This document shows positions 32,633 to 42,396 of a stretch of 64,000 nt of DNA, one piece after another. Within the stretch, counting starts at the first letter, position 1; every line of letters starts with the position of its first letter. The stretch lies in the IMG/VR virus record IMGVR_UViG_3300037466_003065, positions 120,788 through 184,787 of that record. One strand, given 5' to 3'. A program made the position numbers and the translations under genes. The stretch comes from a virus. The notes beneath the pieces are model-generated. The model was not told the origin of the DNA. It saw only the letters and a list, made by a program, of their open reading frames with translations, and made no database searches.

Positions 32633-33154
32633 TTACCTGACGGGCTTGACGACGCGGCTGTTGTGCTGTTCGAACTCCCGAACCTTGTAGGCCGAGTTGG
32701 GGTAGAGCCGCAGGAAGTTGCGACGCTTGGCCTCGTAGCTTTCCTCGACGTTCACGCCCACCCTGTTCTGGAGGATCAGGATGTGGATGCGGTTCAGCTC
32801 ACGGAGCTTCATCGCCTCGTGCTGGAAGTCTCTGGCCCGCCCCTTGGCGATCGGTTTGTAGAAGCAGGGATTCTGCTTCGGAGGCTTGGGGCTGCGAGGG
32901 CCCTTGCAGCCCGGCGTCCGCGGCCCGTGGTGCCACGGCGTGGCCTTCAACATCCGCGGCGTGATGCTGACGGTGGACTTGATGCCCAGGCCCACCGGCC
33001 CGCCGGCCATGTGGGGCTTGAGCACGCCGATGTACTCGACCCGGCGCCGGGCACTGGCCTGGGACATGCTCAGGCCGTGCACCTTCGGAGACGGGACGGG
33101 GAGCACGCGGCACTTCGGGTGGGGCGTGCGGGAGTCGTACACTTTCTCTTTCAT
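32633..33154 (-). CDS. basic hypothetical protein
   Basis: Lys/Arg/Pro-rich ORF in co-oriented run. Confidence 0.55.
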   Translation of the reverse strand: MKEKVYDSRTPHPKCRVLPVPSPKVHGLSMSQASARRRVEYIGVLKPHMAGGPVGLGIKSTVSITPRMLKATPWHHGPRTPGCKGPRSPKPPKQNPCFYKPIAKGRARDFQHEAMKLRELNRIHILILQNRVGVNVEESYEAKRRNFLRLYPNSAYKVREFEQHNSRVVKPVR

Positions 33155-33158
33155 GGCA

Positions 33159-33560
33159 TCACCCAATGCGGTTGAACCGGAACTCGAAGCCGAGGAAGTT
33201 GTCGCGGAGCACGCTGATGCGGGCCTTCGCCTCGTCGAGGGTGTAGCCGGCTTCGACCATCGTCCAGGTGCCGGCGCCGGGGCAGCACTCGGGGATCTGC
33301 TGTTCGATCTTGTAGCGGATCGGCTCGTGCTTCAGCTCCTCCCGCTTGATCTGTTCGGCGAGCTGGGCGCAGTCCCTGCTGCTGAACCCGGCGATCAGGC
33401 AGCAGCCGTGCAGCCGCCGCATCTGCTCGATGGTGCGGCAGGGGACGTACAGCACCTCGTCGACGAGCGTCCAGGTCAGCTCGTTGCGCTCGAGGTGTTC
33501 CGACAGACGACAGGTCTCCTCCTCACCGAGCTTGGAGATGTCGATCGTGAACGTGGTCAT
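33159..33560 (-). CDS. hypothetical protein
   Basis: AGGAGG RBS. Confidence 0.75.
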   Translation of the reverse strand: MTTFTIDISKLGEEETCRLSEHLERNELTWTLVDEVLYVPCRTIEQMRRLHGCCLIAGFSSRDCAQLAEQIKREELKHEPIRYKIEQQIPECCPGAGTWTMVEAGYTLDEAKARISVLRDNFLGFEFRFNRIG

Positions 33561-33582
33561 AAGACCTCCTGTGTTGGAGACG

Positions 33583-33613
33583 AAAGAAGCCGGCGGGTTT
33601 GCGGCCCGCCGGC
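33583..33613 (-). terminator. intrinsic terminator at 3' end of the large structured RNA
   Basis: 9-bp stem GCCGGCGGG/CCCGCCGGC, then TTCTTT. Confidence 0.65.
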
Positions 33614-34907
33614 CCCGGTGTACACGATGCTGTCCCGTAGGTCGCTCCAGTTCCCTGTTGCCAGGAGGATTGCGTTATCACCTCATCGTGTCGCTCCCCG
33701 GGCATTGCCGGGGCTGTTGCCTCAGACCCTCCGCGGTCTCCAGTGCGGAGGTGGTCTGTGTCGTCCTACCGTCTCACCCATTGGGCAACGAGAGCTGGGG
33801 GCAGGATCGTGGACAATGCCACGTCCAACCCAGCCCGCCCCTGCTCCACGGTGTGTTGTGGGCCTGGGCATCTCTGGGAGTACGGCGAAGCGAGCCACCA
33901 CTGCACGCCGGTCGGCGTTCTCGACGGGATCTGTGCCTCTGCTACGATCGATCAGTCACGCCCCCATGCGATGGGTCTTTAGCCCTTGCGGCTGGGCATC
34001 GGTCACGATCGTGGCAGGCAAACAGCACGCCCGTCACCCACGCGGCTTGCTAGGCCGAACGGGCGAACGGAGACGACTGCATGCAGCTCATGCTCGCTTC
34101 TGTGCTTTCGCTAGTGCGGCTTTACGCCCGCGTTGCTCCCTTCGGACTCCGCGATACCTTCCGCTGTCGTCCCAGCTCGGGGCTGGTTCTGCGACAGACC
34201 ACGATCCTTCAACGTGCTCGCCTAGCGGGGCCAGGGGCCTGGCCACAAGCCAGACCGCCGCAAGTGGCGTTCCTGCTTTAAATCACGCATCGGCACAAGA
34301 CCGAAGGTAGGGAACGCCCCAAGGCATCAACTCACACTGGGGATCGTGGTCAACGGTACGTCACGCGGCGTCCTCTGGACGCGTCAGAACCGCGGGCGTC
34401 GTCACGACGTGCCGCGGGCCGTTTCAAACCACACTACTACTCACCAAGGTATTCAGAGTCATGTCCCATTCGGGCAGTCCCAACCACACAGTCGGAACAT
34501 CCGTTTGGGGCTCGTTTATCACCTTGCCCTTTTGCACCGCGTTACCGGTGCGTTTTAAGGTCGTTTCTTGAGGGTAACGACCCTGAGCAACTTTACACCA
34601 CCGGAACTATCCCGCATCCACCGGCCATGAACCCCCGAAGGGGCGGATGGGCGGCTTCCGCTGATAGCCCGCTATGGGCCACCGACCCGGCTCGCCTTGC
34701 GAGCTTTGCGAGGTTGGCTTCCGCCATTCAAGAACCCACCTAGTGGGCGTGCTGTCCGATTCTCAGCACCCGCTGAACGTGGTTCCCGACGAATCGGGGC
34801 GACGTTGAGCAGTCGACCATTGGGGCCGACGCTTGCACCGCAGTCTCTACCGCGTGCAAGGCATCACCTTTGGCCAGTGGCTACCACCGGCCGCAGGGTT
34901 TGATTAG
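33614..34907 (-). ncRNA. candidate giant structured non-coding RNA (about 1.3 kb)
   Basis: No RBS-led, codon-biased ORF; many nested helices (e.g. 34197-34207/34341-34351, 34266-34273/34311-34318, 33934-33950/34006-34020); UUCG/GNRA loops and G-U pairs on the minus strand. Confidence 0.6.
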
Positions 34908-34943
34908 GACAAGCGAATAGGCACTGTGAGACCCCCGAGCTGG
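34908..34943. repeat. 36-bp inverted repeat, left arm
   Basis: GACAAGCGAATAGGCACTGTGAGACCCCCGAGCTGG; 32/36 identical to the reverse complement of 35737-35772. Confidence 0.9.
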
Positions 34944-34972
34944 ACACTACAAACGACCCCCTTCACTCACGA

Positions 34973-35671
34973 CTACTCCCGAACCACGACCCGGCAGAAC
35001 TGCGCGGCCGTTTCCGACCGGTTCAGCAGAACCTGCTCGAAGGCCAAGTCGACGGGCTTGGTTGCCCCGTCGATGGTCTTGACCGACCCGCCGGACAGCG
35101 CCCGCACCGCGTTCATCGCGGCCGGCACGCGGCCCCACGCCCGGTTGACCCACTCCTGCGCCTTCATGAAGTGCTTCGCCACCTCCTCTTTCTTTGCGGC
35201 GACCCACTTCTCCACCAGCGCCGCATCCTGCGGCTTGACCTCGACGGTGCCGATCTTGCCACCGTCCTTACGGGCGAGCGCCTCGGCGTCAATCGCCTTG
35301 AGGCGAGCGTCGCGGTGCGCCTCAAGTGCGGCCAAGACCTCCACGGTGGGGATCTTGGCGAGGAACCCTTGCGTCACGGTGCGAGCCTTCATGGGCTTGC
35401 CACCGTTGCGAGCCTTGCAGCACGCCTTCACGGCCGACCCGAGCATCGGGCCGGCGCCCGTCCCCTTGTCGAAGATCCCGAAGATCAGGGCATACGCCGC
35501 GGCGCTGGTGCGCTTGCGGAGTTCGCCCATGTCGGCCTTGCGGAGGTCTTGGAGGTTCTGGGCCGTCGCATCGAGAACGAGAACATCCTCGTGCGAGAAG
35601 CCCAGCGCCTCATCAATCGCCGCTGCCGCCTTCGAGACCGAACGAGAAGAAACTTTCGTGTCCTTAGCCAT
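34973..35671 (-). CDS. basic Ala/Lys-rich protein enclosed by the inverted repeat
   Basis: MAKDTKVSSR... after GGGAG RBS; clear phage codon bias. Confidence 0.85.
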   Translation of the reverse strand: MAKDTKVSSRSVSKAAAAIDEALGFSHEDVLVLDATAQNLQDLRKADMGELRKRTSAAAYALIFGIFDKGTGAGPMLGSAVKACCKARNGGKPMKARTVTQGFLAKIPTVEVLAALEAHRDARLKAIDAEALARKDGGKIGTVEVKPQDAALVEKWVAAKKEEVAKHFMKAQEWVNRAWGRVPAAMNAVRALSGGSVKTIDGATKPVDLAFEQVLLNRSETAAQFCRVVVRE

Positions 35672-35736
35672 TGTCAACTCCCGCCGGAACCTGTCCGGCA
35701 TGTTAGAGACCAACAAACAGAACGATAGAACCAGAA

Positions 35737-35772
35737 CCAGCTAAGGGGTCTCACAGTACCTATTCACTTGTC
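35737..35772. repeat. 36-bp inverted repeat, right arm
   Basis: CCAGCTAAGGGGTCTCACAGTACCTATTCACTTGTC. Confidence 0.9.
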
Positions 35773-36060
35773 AAAGAACATGCCTGCGCACGCTCTAGTC
35801 GACGGTCGCTCTTTGCGTAGGGTATGGGCTTATCCCAATGGGGCACCTAGGCACGTACATCGCCTAGGGGTTCTACCCACGTTGACCGCTTGACGTCTCA
35901 CGACGTAGGCGGGGTTCGGTGCGGCTGCCGCACCGTCAACGGGCATCGCGTTTTGTCCACCTAGACCCACGACACGCGGCGAACCGCGTAACGTGAGCGG
36001 GGGTTTCTCCCACGCGACCCACACGAACACGACCGAAGATTTCAAAGAGCAACATCACGA
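35773..36060 (-). ncRNA. structured 5' segment of the same putative transcript
   Basis: Hairpins ACGCGG-TTCG-CCGCGT (35974-35989), CGGTGCGG/CCGCACCG (35917-35935), ACGTC-GTGA-GACGT, CCTAGG/CCTAGG; no credible ORF. Confidence 0.5.
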
Positions 36061-36089
36061 GGCACCAGTTAGACGACTGCGGCGAATCC

Positions 36090-36378
36090 GGCAGAGGTGC
36101 GCGGGGTGGGGGGCTTTGGGATCGGGCGACCTGGTCGGCCTGGCCGACCTATATGGGCAGGCTTTCACATAAGGGTCAGGCCAAACTCAAAATGGGCGGG
36201 GGCCTCTCCCAATCACATCTGCGAACATGGATCAGATCGAAGGGCGGGCTCGAAAATTAGGCGGGGGCCAGAGTCACATGACCATGACACAGGGGGCGGG
36301 GGTGGTCTGAGCTGGATCGAAAGGGGCGGGGGCGAGATGGGGTCGGTTCAAAATTTTACGGGGGAAGGGTCGAAATAA
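36090..36378 (+). other. G-tract-rich strand-switch block (possible genome end/pac region or G-quadruplex)
   Basis: More than 15 runs of GGG or longer on the plus strand, interspersed with TCAAAAT/TCGAAA motifs. Confidence 0.4.
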
Positions 36379-36426
36379 TCAGGGGCATGTTCGGGTTTCT
36401 GTTGTTCCACTCACAATTAGTTCTAC

Positions 36427-36819
36427 GTGGAACACGAGCTCATCCTTATGTTCCACAGGGGAACATCCGATGTCGGGGGCATGGATTTCAACACGGGCTA
36501 CATCATGGGGCTGGTCGTTGGCGGGGGCTGCTTCACGATCCACCAGAACAAGAAGAGTGGGCAGGTCACACCGACGTTCAGCCTGAAGCTGCACGAGCGG
36601 GACTACCAGCCACTACTCGACCTGCAGAAGCTGTTGGGAGGGACGATCTACGGGCCCTACAACCACCAGAAGCGGAAGTATCGGGCGCTCTTCGTGCGAG
36701 GGGCTGATCTGGCGAAGGCGATCCCTGTGTTCGACAACTACCTGCCGAAGAGCCACAAGAGGGATCAGTTCTCGGCTTGGTTGGAGCACGAACGGGTCAG
36801 GGTGCTGTGGCAGAAATGA
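36427..36819 (+). CDS. single-motif LAGLIDADG homing-endonuclease-like protein, probably catalytically inactive
   Basis: GYIMGLVVGGGCFTI helix (acidic metal ligand replaced by Gly), FSLKL strand, LLDLQKLLGGTIY, IPVFDNYL..SHKRDQF; start may be 36448 or 36481. Confidence 0.75.
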   Translation: MEHELILMFHRGTSDVGGMDFNTGYIMGLVVGGGCFTIHQNKKSGQVTPTFSLKLHERDYQPLLDLQKLLGGTIYGPYNHQKRKYRALFVRGADLAKAIPVFDNYLPKSHKRDQFSAWLEHERVRVLWQK

Positions 36820-36820
36820 A

Positions 36821-36901
36821 GGCCCAGAGGAGGGAGTCGAACCCTCGGTGCGTGTCAAGCACTAGCCGCTGCGTCCGTGCCGTTGGTAGACTTCACTGGG
36901 C
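36821..36901 (-). tRNA. non-canonical tRNA-like element (anticodon ambiguous)
   Basis: 8-bp acceptor GCCCAGTG/CTCTGGGC (1 mismatch), D-arm GTCT/GGAC with GG in the loop, T-arm GAGGG-TTCGACT-CCCTC; irregular anticodon arm; no encoded CCA. Confidence 0.5.
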
Positions 36902-37047
36902 AGAAGAAACATCGGGCGGCCAAGGTCTTCTTCATGAACTGAGAGCTGCCTCACCGATAACTCTCCTGTCTCGCAGATCACCCACCTTCGAGACAAAGCC
37001 CGAACCCTGCGGCTACTCCCATGGTCGCATGGTTTTTCTTTGCGCAT

Positions 37048-37080
37048 AAAAGAACCCCGCTGTGTGGGTGATCAGCGGGG
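37048..37080 (-). terminator. intrinsic terminator
   Basis: CCCCGCTG/CAGCGGGG stem, then TTCTTTT. Confidence 0.7.
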
Positions 37081-37144
37081 CGCTTTCCCTACCCGACCGG
37101 GCCTGATAGCAACACACCACCAGGTGGGGATCCATGTCGGGCAG

Positions 37145-37366
37145 CTAATTCTGTGCTGCGTGCAGTGACGCGAGTAGCTCGTCGACGACGGCGGTTGTAA
37201 TCGAGTTCCGGGCCTGACGCAACGCCTCGATCGCCTGGTCGATCTGGTCTACGTCAAGGGTGCCGTCGAACCCGAGCAGGGTGACCGTGAAGTGGGCGGC
37301 ACTGGTGCCACTGGTCAGGGGGGACTGCTGGACGTGGGCCTCGAAGCCTCCGTGCATGATGAGCAT
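37145..37366 (-). CDS. hypothetical protein
   Basis: MLIMHGG... after AAAGGAG. Confidence 0.65.
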   Translation of the reverse strand: MLIMHGGFEAHVQQSPLTSGTSAAHFTVTLLGFDGTLDVDQIDQAIEALRQARNSITTAVVDELLASLHAAQN

Positions 37367-37392
37367 GGCACTCCTTTGCTGAAGTGGCACGC

Positions 37393-37420
37393 ATCATACC
37401 GGGGGCAACTATCATGTCTA
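37393..37420 (-). promoter_or_regulatory. sigma70-type promoter
   Basis: TAGACA-N16-TATGAT. Confidence 0.55.
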
Positions 37421-37440
37421 TCAGAAATTTGTAGGGAGTT

Positions 37441-38022
37441 TTACCCGAGGCCAGTCTCGTGCGAGTCGAGACTCTCGTTCTCGCCACCGATCGAGAGCCG
37501 CAGGAAGTCGTGGGCACAAGGGCCGTCATGACCCTTGGTGCGGGTGCAGGCGGCATAGCCGGGCGTGGGAGGGATGGAGCCGCAACGGGGGAGGGGATGG
37601 GGCAGCTTGTGCGGAGCCGATAAAGCGGCGGGGTGGATACCCTCGACGTGGTTCGGGTCGAGGGTCGGCACCTCGACTCGCGGGGCCTCATACACTGCGG
37701 GAGCCAAGAAGCTGAACCCACGCCTGACCGTGACGGCCATGTTCTCCTGCTGCTCCTGCAGACCGGGAGGGAGCTCGATCTTCGCGCCGGGCAAGAACTT
37801 CTCCTTGAAGTAGGTATCCAGCCCCGCGAAATTTTCGATAGTCGCCGGAATCGTGACCCGCAGGCCGCACCGGTCGCAGAACAGCGCCTTCGCCGTCGCC
37901 GTCGTCTGGTGGCACGAGACCAGGCCGCCGCAGGTGGTGTGGATCCCCGCGCCGAACGCGTTGATCTTCTCGTGGGGCATGCCGAACACCGACAACCGAT
38001 CGCCGTCCGTGGAGATAATCAT
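37441..38022 (-). CDS. Zn-ribbon hypothetical protein
   Basis: HTTCGG...FCDRCG; start MIISTDG is uncertain. Confidence 0.55.
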   Translation of the reverse strand: MIISTDGDRLSVFGMPHEKINAFGAGIHTTCGGLVSCHQTTATAKALFCDRCGLRVTIPATIENFAGLDTYFKEKFLPGAKIELPPGLQEQQENMAVTVRRGFSFLAPAVYEAPRVEVPTLDPNHVEGIHPAALSAPHKLPHPLPRCGSIPPTPGYAACTRTKGHDGPCAHDFLRLSIGGENESLDSHETGLG

Positions 38023-42172: not shown

Positions 42173-42350
42173 GGAGATGGTCTCGATCGCCGGCGCCGCG
42201 CAGCACGCCGACCCCGCCGTCCGCAAGCGAATCCTCAAGCTGTTGAAAGCCGAGCACGAACGTCTCGAGGTCGTGCACAACCACATTGGCCAAATCGAGT
42301 TGCTCGAGGACTACATCGAAAACAAACGCAAAAACCGCAAAAACCAGTGA
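42102..42350 (+). CDS. hypothetical coiled-coil protein
   Basis: Codon-biased ORF; start uncertain. Confidence 0.5.
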   Translation: MKSSSPPSPKVSVRLRRQFDAIREEMVSIAGAAQHADPAVRKRILKLLKAEHERLEVVHNHIGQIELLEDYIENKRKNRKNQ

Positions 42351-42396
42351 AAAACGTCGATTTGGAGCCGTTTTCCACTGGTTTTTGCGGTTTTTG
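42329..42396. repeat. 28-bp A-tract inverted repeat (hairpin/cruciform, possible bidirectional terminator)
   Basis: 42329-42356 vs 42369-42396, 27/28 match, 12-nt loop. Confidence 0.85.

Follow-up and report, generated by a model that had tools for sequence, protein, structure and literature searches.

The stretch analysed here, called the window below, is the final 64 kb (64,000 nucleotides, G+C 64.8%) of a 184,787-bp IMG/VR virus record (IMGVR_UViG_3300037466_003065). The proteins it encodes include rIIA/rIIB, a terminase and a portal, and since the terminase is at most 26.6% identical to that of any deposited phage, the virus represents a phage lineage without a cultured relative. On the minus strand, a gene for a 232-amino-acid (aa) protein is enclosed by a 36-bp inverted repeat, preceded by two boxA-type sequences and followed by about 1.3 kb of non-coding DNA that ends at an intrinsic terminator. 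These parts, read from sequence, probably amount to a phage mimic of a ribosomal RNA (rrn) operon, with boxA signals, a processing stem in which an mRNA replaces the 16S rRNA, a large RNA and a terminator. Close homologues of the 232-aa protein, with 46-65% identity, are found on three metagenomic contigs (L002, L003 and L004), and two further loci (L081 and L082) were reached via homology to the 177-aa protein encoded downstream. The element is single-copy in the phage genome and occupies the same syntenic site in four diverged phages.

The inverted repeat around the gene (34908-34943/35737-35772) spans 36 nt with 89% complementarity, and no other long-range inverted repeat of the window stands out. 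The helix formed by its two arms measures 35-38 bp in all four phages. Its outer 12 bp (GACAAGUGAAUA with UAUUCGCUUGUC) are conserved in the phages, and its inner 24 bp or so are different in every phage and still complementary. Summed over the four phages, the stem comprises 127 Watson-Crick, 14 G-U, 1 A-C and 3 other pairs; given that 14 of the 18 non-Watson-Crick positions are G-U and a single one is A-C, the stem is selected as RNA, on the sense strand. A first-pass annotation of this DNA had described a 36-bp stem around the gene, and this holds as an RNA-level helix kept by compensatory change, not as a pair of transposon ends. In common with leader-trailer helices, the stem is a long-range helix of more than 17-20 bp that shows covariation and RNA-level pairing and has an arm directly after a boxA; what it encloses is the 232-aa open reading frame (ORF), without rRNA match, and not an rRNA. 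It would thus be better read as a processing and antitermination module than as an RNA junction.

The E. coli rrn boxA consists of UGCUCUUUA followed by ACAA (PMC2724277). The first of the two phage elements, boxA-1, reads UGCUCUUUGAAAU as RNA, agrees with this boxA at 8 of 9 positions and is conserved in all four phages. It sits 271 nt upstream of boxA-2, which reads UG(U/C)UCUUUGACAA and overlaps the first 5 nt of the stem, so that the outer 12 bp of the stem are the tail of a boxA and the invariant G(U/C)UCUUUGACAAGUGAAUA runs into the stem. For each boxA, at least 8 of 9 positions match in three or all of the four phages, and the 185-kb genome contains the motif G[CT]TCTTT[AG]A at two places only, both within this locus. 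In bacteria, boxA is necessary and sufficient for formation of the rrn antitermination complex and is present twice per rrn operon, ahead of the 16S and 23S leader-trailer helices (PMC10250234). By sequence, boxA-1 and boxA-2 are rrn-type boxA elements, for which binding of NusB-S10 is predicted.

A link to bacterial rRNA operons is also seen in longer matches. In a scan that covered one genome per prokaryotic species, the boxA 19-mer GYTCTTTGACAAGTGAATA was found identical in at least 120 bacterial genomes, the carriers among the matches listed being Alphaproteobacteria, Phycisphaerae/Tepidisphaerales, some Firmicutes and Desulfovibrionaceae. According to Rfam models, it precedes the 16S rRNA by about 200-470 nt in L097 and L126 and the 23S rRNA of L120 by about 100 nt; of the 120 matches listed, 31 have a 16S start within the next 1.5 kb. 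In a Phycisphaerae metagenome-assembled genome (L116) and a Tepidisphaeraceae one (L126), the 16S leader GACAAGUGAAUAGUCGGA has its partner strand, UCCGACUAUUCACUUGUC, about 2.0-2.1 kb further on, past the 16S rRNA; the leader form GACAAGUGAAUAG... likewise pairs with ...CUAUUCACUUGUC after the 16S rRNA. The trailers of these two genomes read UAUUCACUUGUC(C/G)AAGAUCAA, the pairing strand being followed by GUC(C/G)AAGAUCAA, and the phage trailer, UAUUCGCUUGUCCUAAUCAAA, has a similar 3' flank. The same 12 bp therefore open the 16S leader-trailer helix in Phycisphaerae/Tepidisphaeraceae, with the boxA-helix arrangement seen in the phage. As the leader and trailer match those of L116 and L126, the phage carries the boxA and 16S-helix base of such bacteria, with its own gene replacing the 16S rRNA, and this origin of the stem base explains why the outer stem is invariant and the inner part drifts. 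From these matches we infer that the host is probably either a Phycisphaerae/Tepidisphaerales-like member of the Planctomycetota or an alphaproteobacterium, and the copied 16S leader-trailer module would thereby offer a clue to the host of a lineage that has no cultured relative.

Similar sequences are present elsewhere. Among the matches of a 17-mer in IMG/VR contigs, about 50 of 78 are preceded by a boxA-type G(U/C). One unrelated IMG/VR contig of 31% G+C (L065) carries AGCUCUUUGACAAGUGAAUAGGAU... at about position 1190 of its minus strand and a matching trailer, ...AUCCUAUUCACUUGUU, 295 nt downstream, and it appears from its sequence to share the boxA and leader-trailer design. As judged from the 17-mer matches and L065, rrn-type boxA modules may be a widespread and little-described phage strategy.

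With regard to the DNA on either side of the gene, the first-pass annotation had described it as non-coding and densely folded, and the presence of a non-coding, structured region is confirmed. The G+C content at third codon positions (GC3), taken in 300-nt windows, gives no frame signal at 33600-34950 and 35700-36400, where all frames range from 0.53 to 0.70, and reaches 0.87-0.99 in the flanking genes. In the alignable blocks of the large RNA, substitutions relative to the homologues are evenly spread over the three phases (chi-square p 0.12-0.99) and indels are mostly not multiples of three, and the substitutions in the 232-aa coding sequence are strongly 3-periodic (p 8e-4 to 1e-11). Moreover, metagenome gene callers leave 1.4 kb at the locus without a called gene, and the corresponding 1.3-1.45 kb found 3' of the gene in L002 and L003 lack GC3 periodicity. 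With respect to folding, the claim stands in part: the comparative evidence is positive, but the single-sequence fold z-scores of 200-nt windows on the minus strand average about -1, no better than in neighbouring coding DNA, so that the case for structure is comparative and not thermodynamic.

The large RNA (33,576-34,907, minus strand) is conserved in L002, L003, L004 and L081, and the portion at 34112-33640 aligns with L002 at 71% identity (blastn), as high as the coding sequence. Near-identical copies of the phage are present across a series of Joint Genome Institute (JGI) samples; in those designated L083-L090 there is no substitution within the large RNA, which makes them uninformative on its structure. 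RNAalifold was run on the two alignable blocks, and the energies were compared with those of column-shuffled, refolded alignments. The consensus folds reached z-scores of -11.8 for block 1 and -12.2 for block 2, the latter belonging to the alignment (A5) that covers domains C and D, against -4.1 and -2.2 for two flanking coding-sequence alignments in the same pipeline, whose compensatory counts lay within the shuffled range. Compensatory pairs among homologues, as covariation, exceed the shuffles well in both blocks: 39 against 16.5 +/- 5.0 (maximum 28) in block 1 and 36 against 12.0 +/- 3.1 (maximum 22) in block 2. Per-pair shuffles gave 17.3 +/- 3.0 and 14.1 +/- 2.8, respectively, with none of 500 reaching the observed value, and controls with slid partners yielded at most 15 compensatory pairs, compared with the 36-39 observed. 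Since G-U cells outnumber A-C cells by 94 to 14 in the helices of the blocks, the minus strand is identified as the RNA strand. Overall, about 30 helices are kept through compensatory changes across the two blocks. Among them are six helices that had been named from the sequence alone, at 34872-34892, 34832-34860, 34559-34582, 34534-34551, 33934-33950/34006-34020 and 33723-33758.

The RNA can be divided into four domains. The 82 pairs of domain A fall into 13 helices (A4), and its slid-partner controls give at most 13 compensatory pairs against 39 observed. Domain B showed no conserved consensus fold (z -0.2); the 11-bp helix 34197-34207/34341-34351 and the 8-bp helix 34266-34273/34311-34318 can, like both UUCG hairpins, be read from the sequence as had been noted before, and these two helices are specific to this phage. 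A closing helix of this domain, GUGUGG/CCGCAC, has the counterpart GAUGUUUCC/GGGAACAUC in L002, as recognised by eye only. The core in domain C (34100-33887) has a mean column identity of 80% (A5, A9), compared with 59% for the neighbouring coding sequence. It contains the 11-bp helix 34017-34006/33950-33939 and the CUAGCAA loop, and its helices 1-9 are 94-100% paired, except for the 2-bp helix 4 (88%), with 23 compensatory pairs. A GCAA-tetraloop hairpin is found in domain D near 33669-33652. The block ends, as previously proposed, at an intrinsic hairpin on the minus strand (33616-33586), which is the one minus-strand terminator in the scanned interval 33000-37000 and is retained in L002 and L003 with different stem sequences.

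No known class seems to account for this RNA, in keeping with the earlier remark that no motif was recognised, and neither the RNA nor the 36-bp stem corresponds to an Rfam family. Rfam covariance models gave no relevant match at the gathering score in the whole window and nothing at E<=1 in L002, L003, L004 and L081; GOLLD, ROOL, OLE, HEARO, raiA and the other large Rfam RNAs are absent even from the weak matches (E<=10) at 33000-37500. A covariance model of domain C (R1) recovered only the four known copies from the window and 11 loci, and nhmmer profiles of the RNA blocks and the leader found known copies only in 196 loci and the whole phage genome. Searches with the locus (blastn) and the 232-aa protein (tblastn) against 50,697 phage records returned zero matches, and no relatives of the 232-aa protein, a 133-aa protein or the protein alignment were obtained from IMG/VR and JGI metagenome contigs. 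The stem and two RNA motifs, searched as DNA patterns in viral, metagenome and genome collections, retrieved no RNA homologues, and neither the protein nor the RNA motifs led to relatives beyond those listed here in searches of IMG/VR, the JGI contigs and GTDB genomes. Judged by these comparisons, the large RNA appears to be a new and rare structured RNA family of about 1.3 kb without Rfam relative.

Table 1. Features of the locus, in window coordinates and in minus-strand order
Feature	Position	Strand	Description
Repeat array, 4x CCCCCG-N(2-7)-TTTYGA	36186..36366	-	upstream of leader; three on a 65-bp period
Leader block	36053..36180	-	CCUGACCCUUAUG, GCCCAUA, CCAAAGCCCCCC
boxA-1	36038..36051	-	UGCUCUUUGAAAUC, putative rrn-type antitermination element
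Unit 1	35802..36036	-	non-coding RNA of about 230 nt directly after boxA-1; UUCG hairpin 35989-35974
Hairpin AGAGCGU/AUGUUCU	35775..35796	-	abuts long stem; 3' strand is the start of boxA-2
boxA-2	35768..35780	-	UGUUCUUUGACAA; UGCUCUUUGACAA in L002 and L003
5' arm of 36-bp long-range helix	35737..35772	-	leader strand; outer 12 nt invariant, inner part varies
232-aa protein gene	34973..35671	-	enclosed by helix; GC3 0.81-0.91, 3-periodic substitutions
3' arm of 36-bp helix	34908..34943	-	trailer strand; followed by conserved flank CUAAUCAAA
Block 1	34912-34395		alignment A4; 82 predicted pairs, 39 changed on both sides
Domain A	34440..34907	-	hairpin series and multi-helix block
Domain B	34105..34439	-	variable, poorly alignable, insert-like; holds the 11-bp and 8-bp helices
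Block 2	34125-33600		alignment A5; 97 predicted pairs, 36 changed on both sides
Domain C core	33887..34100	-	closed by GAAGCGAG/CUCGCUUC
Domain D	33620..33886	-	helices 11-18; hairpins including 33758-33723
Intrinsic terminator hairpin	33586..33616	-	ends the unit; ribosome-binding site of next gene follows

The protein encoded inside the stem is basic, with an isoelectric point of 9.6, and predicted to be all-helical with a long helical hairpin (AF2, predicted local distance difference test 83.5). It has no match in Pfam, PHROG or PDB sequences, nor in Foldseek searches against PDB and BFVD; VIA-align gave generic helical-hairpin matches only (Z<=6.8), and in the ESM Atlas it falls into unnamed viral clusters only. 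Eight further homologues were found. The distant ones, with 26-41% identity, lack a flanking stem. In L092, a homologue of the 177-aa gene, whose place in this phage is on the far side of the large RNA, comes 117 nt after the gene, and neither boxA, stem nor RNA is present; reading L093 for a boxA gave none either. Given that L092 and L093 lack them, the boxA elements, stems and large RNA seem to be a clade-specific package around a pre-existing gene pair. The basic character is the same in all homologues of the 232-aa protein, whether or not the RNA is present, and from this distribution the protein does not appear to need the RNA. The suggestion that it is a basic partner protein of the RNA is unproven, as homologues exist without stem or RNA. 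In L093, at least 668 nt before the homologue (1-668) are hairpin-rich and without GC3 periodicity. This region has a 13-mer, GGCCUAGCAAGCC, in common with domain C and a 10-mer in common with the leader; its candidacy as a homologue of the RNA or leader was rejected, since nhmmer and the covariance model were negative and the shared 13-mer and 10-mer are taken as chance.

Upstream of the stem, the 0.3-kb 5' part has the look of a separate unit led by a boxA, rather than of one half of the large RNA. Directly 3' of boxA-1, a helix of 6-11 bp that differs from phage to phage can form with a segment before boxA-2, enclosing about 130-230 nt (partly by eye), which is suggestive of a unit closed by its own long-range helix (36035-36030/35808-35803 in this phage). 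The hairpin at 35775-35796 has 7 bp and two compensatory pairs (RNAalifold on A7). Further upstream, the leader block is conserved in L002, L003 and L004 (blastn, MAFFT), and its element CCAAAGCCCCCC is unique in the phage genome. The CCCCCG-N(2-7)-TTTYGA motif forms no second cluster on the minus strand of the 185-kb genome, comparable repeats precede the leader in L002-L004, and the differences between L083 and the window at 36186-36366 fall only among the repeats (36303-36307). The repeats may serve as sites of a promoter or a regulator.

From the resemblance to rrn operons we infer that the locus is transcribed as a single unit, with Nus-dependent antitermination and cleavage by RNase III, in a host that is planctomycete-like. 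This minus-strand unit would span roughly 36.2 to 33.58 kb, with the host RNA polymerase starting somewhere upstream of 36,051. Both boxA RNAs, transcribed early, would recruit host NusB-S10 and other Nus factors, and the polymerase so modified could cross about 2.6 kb, of which just 0.7 kb is translated, without Rho-dependent termination. As in rrn operons, the antitermination complex may help the distant helix strands to meet, the second boxA leading straight into the 36-bp leader-trailer helix that brackets the 232-aa mRNA. RNase III would cut this long helix as it does in pre-rRNA, setting free an mRNA capped by a stem and defining the 5' end of the large RNA, whose 3' end would be the terminator. 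Such rrn-like expression suggests how a phage might transcribe kilobases of untranslated RNA despite Rho, a mechanism that can be tested.

As to what the large RNA does, our best guess, held tentatively, is an RNA or ribonucleoprotein (RNP) scaffold made in quantity like rRNA. A bolder and rather doubtful idea is that the phage hijacks the machine by which its host transcribes and folds rRNA, a boxA-nucleated antitermination complex that also acts as a chaperone of long-range helices, to mass-produce and fold an rRNA-sized RNA of a new class. If so, the RNA might be an RNP scaffold with the basic protein, a GOLLD/ROOL-like multimer or a decoy for ribosome-assembly or RNA-decay factors, and once RNase III has cut, the 5' unit and the 1.3-kb RNA could stay paired through the conserved 12 bp at the base of the stem, as an RNA in two pieces. 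With 1.3 kb, about 30 covarying helices and no Rfam relative, it would rank among the largest structured non-coding RNAs outside rRNA.

Several observations weigh against an rRNA-operon mimic that produces one large RNA. The boxA-2 of L004 is degenerate (CGAUCUUUGACAA), and no convincing sigma-70 promoter was found by scan or by eye on the minus strand upstream of boxA-1. In this phage, the helix after boxA-1 has just 6-7 bp and could be due to chance, and the 5' unit has no significant consensus fold (z +0.5). The comparisons draw on four sequences per RNA block from one small clade, too few for R-scape-type per-pair statistics. Neither duplexfold nor full-length RNAalifold gave a credible helix that links domains A-D or encloses the 1.3-kb RNA, and the 1.3 kb could represent several RNAs or one RNA of independent domains. 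Furthermore, 72 of the 120 listed matches of the boxA 19-mer have no recognisable 16S start within 1.5 kb, and the 19-mer is therefore not exclusive to 16S leaders. Loci of this kind include L096, L099-L102, L107, L109, L111-L113 and about 60 more; in five that were checked with Rfam, no rRNA was found. Transcripts that are led by a boxA and are not rRNA may be common in Alphaproteobacteria and Planctomycetota.

The first-pass annotation had proposed a single multidomain RNA of about 1.6 kb whose halves are joined by the stem and which carries the gene of its basic partner protein; such an RNA might be ribozyme-like or a scaffold, the gene being a passenger in a peripheral loop. The stem would indeed bring the 5' 0.3 kb and the 3' 1.3 kb together, its outer 12 bp could still hold these flanks after an RNase III-type cut, the protein is basic and co-oriented with no terminator in between, and boxA, stem and RNA are present or absent together. 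What survives of this proposal is a large structured minus-strand RNA at about 34907-33576; the stem as the joint of two halves does not, as its base is accounted for by the boxA tail and the identity with the bacterial 16S leader-trailer helix, the 5' part lacks a significant conserved fold, no covarying pairs connect the 5' part or the stem flanks with the 3' domains, and protein homologues without the RNA are just as basic. The single RNA is thus improbable. A somewhat poorer prospect is that the flanks are cis-acting untranslated regions (UTRs) of the 232-aa gene, involved in stability, translation or timing, and that the large RNA does nothing by itself. In its favour, the RNA would belong to the same transcription unit as the gene, the stem would protect both mRNA ends, and phage mRNAs can be stabilised by long structured UTRs. 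However, a length of 1.3 kb, some 30 covarying helices and a core that is better conserved than the coding sequence go far beyond the needs of a 3' stabiliser, a cut in the stem would sever the RNA from the mRNA, and the gene works without such flanks in L092 and L093.

Two other explanations have very little in their favour. A DNA-level element, in which the repeat delimits a cassette that is mobile or can invert and the hairpin-rich DNA serves as an origin or for packaging, might be suspected from a 36-bp inverted repeat flanking a single orphan gene with a LAGLIDADG gene and repeat arrays nearby. It is highly unlikely, as ratios of G-U to A-C of 14:1 in the stem and 94:14 in the other helices are those expected of a one-strand RNA, the element is single-copy and syntenic in four diverged phages with covarying inner arms, and the 232-aa protein bears no transposase or recombinase signature in Pfam or PHROG. 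The least probable of all is a degenerate or atypical self-splicing intron, whether of group I or of group II, or else a guide RNA of the OMEGA/HEARO type together with its ORF. Known introns do bear ORFs in peripheral loops, a LAGLIDADG gene is adjacent and GNRA-type tetraloops are present, but Rfam models, those for introns and HEARO included, give no match even at E<=10 at this locus or at E<=1 in its homologues. Nor do the flanks form a split gene, since after the terminator the next gene starts with a ribosome-binding site of its own. Additionally, the LAGLIDADG gene is on the other strand and outside the unit, and the 232-aa protein has no nuclease or reverse transcriptase (RT) domain.

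Some observations concern the surroundings of the locus. The LAGLIDADG-family ORF (36427-36819, plus strand; 130 aa; PF00961, E 9.8e-12) is divergent from the RNA unit and conserved in L083 and L084. Next to it, a tRNA-like sequence on the minus strand (36822-36901) scores 21 bits against the Rfam tRNA-Sec model, below threshold, and ARAGORN calls no tRNA in all 64 kb. At genome positions 117453-118774, shortly before the window starts, there is a second stretch of about 1.3 kb without clear GC3 frame signal (58% G+C), which could be another non-coding region or an atypical gene. Finally, a 28-nt palindrome with 96% complementarity and a 12-nt spacer, made of CAAAAAC-type repeats, lies at 42329-42396 of the window.

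The rRNA-operon mimic can be set beside several known systems. Group I and II introns and HEARO share with the phage locus an ORF looped out between the strands of an RNA helix; here, however, the searches revealed no ribozyme core, the flanks do not represent exons, and the looped-out ORF encodes neither a nuclease nor an RT nor IscB. In the early RNA of T7, with its RNase III sites, and in the DicF-dicB operon, double-stranded RNA elements likewise divide a polycistronic RNA into stem-capped stable products, but these are local hairpins, whereas the strands of the phage stem lie about 800 nt apart around a whole gene, in the manner of pre-rRNA. Lambdoid nut sites (boxA-boxB, with protein N) are similar in that a phage places a boxA on its own transcript to make the polymerase resistant to termination, as is predicted here. 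In contrast to them, the boxA of this phage is of the rrn consensus type (CUUUG/A, with an extra U) and not the lambda CGCUCUUA, no boxB-like hairpin or N-like gene was identified, and the boxA is coupled to leader-trailer helices, which nut sites lack.

Among the large non-coding RNAs, GOLLD measures about 800 nt and ROOL about 580 nt. The phage RNA is longer (about 1.3 kb) than these and than OLE, has a high G+C content, is known from five lineages only, matches none of the Rfam models of GOLLD, ROOL and OLE and is part of an rrn-like unit together with a protein gene. It resembles these classes in being a large, multi-domain, covarying non-coding RNA encoded by a phage (PMC5737381; cryo-EM in PMC12286853), and classes of this type were recently shown to form unexpected RNA-only assemblies (PMC12286853). 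Compared with the rrn leader (PMC10250234, PMC2724277), the phage helix encloses a protein mRNA instead of the 16S rRNA, and it is followed by an unrelated 1.3-kb RNA without rRNA or tRNA homology, in a phage. In all other respects listed here the two are alike, as read from the phage sequence: two boxA copies per transcript, each ahead of a long-range helix; a boxA and 3' spacer that are identical over 19 nt; an outer 12 bp and 3' flank equal to the 16S leader-trailer helix of Phycisphaerae/Tepidisphaeraceae contigs; a covarying helix of more than 17 bp; and a transcript that is long and mostly untranslated.

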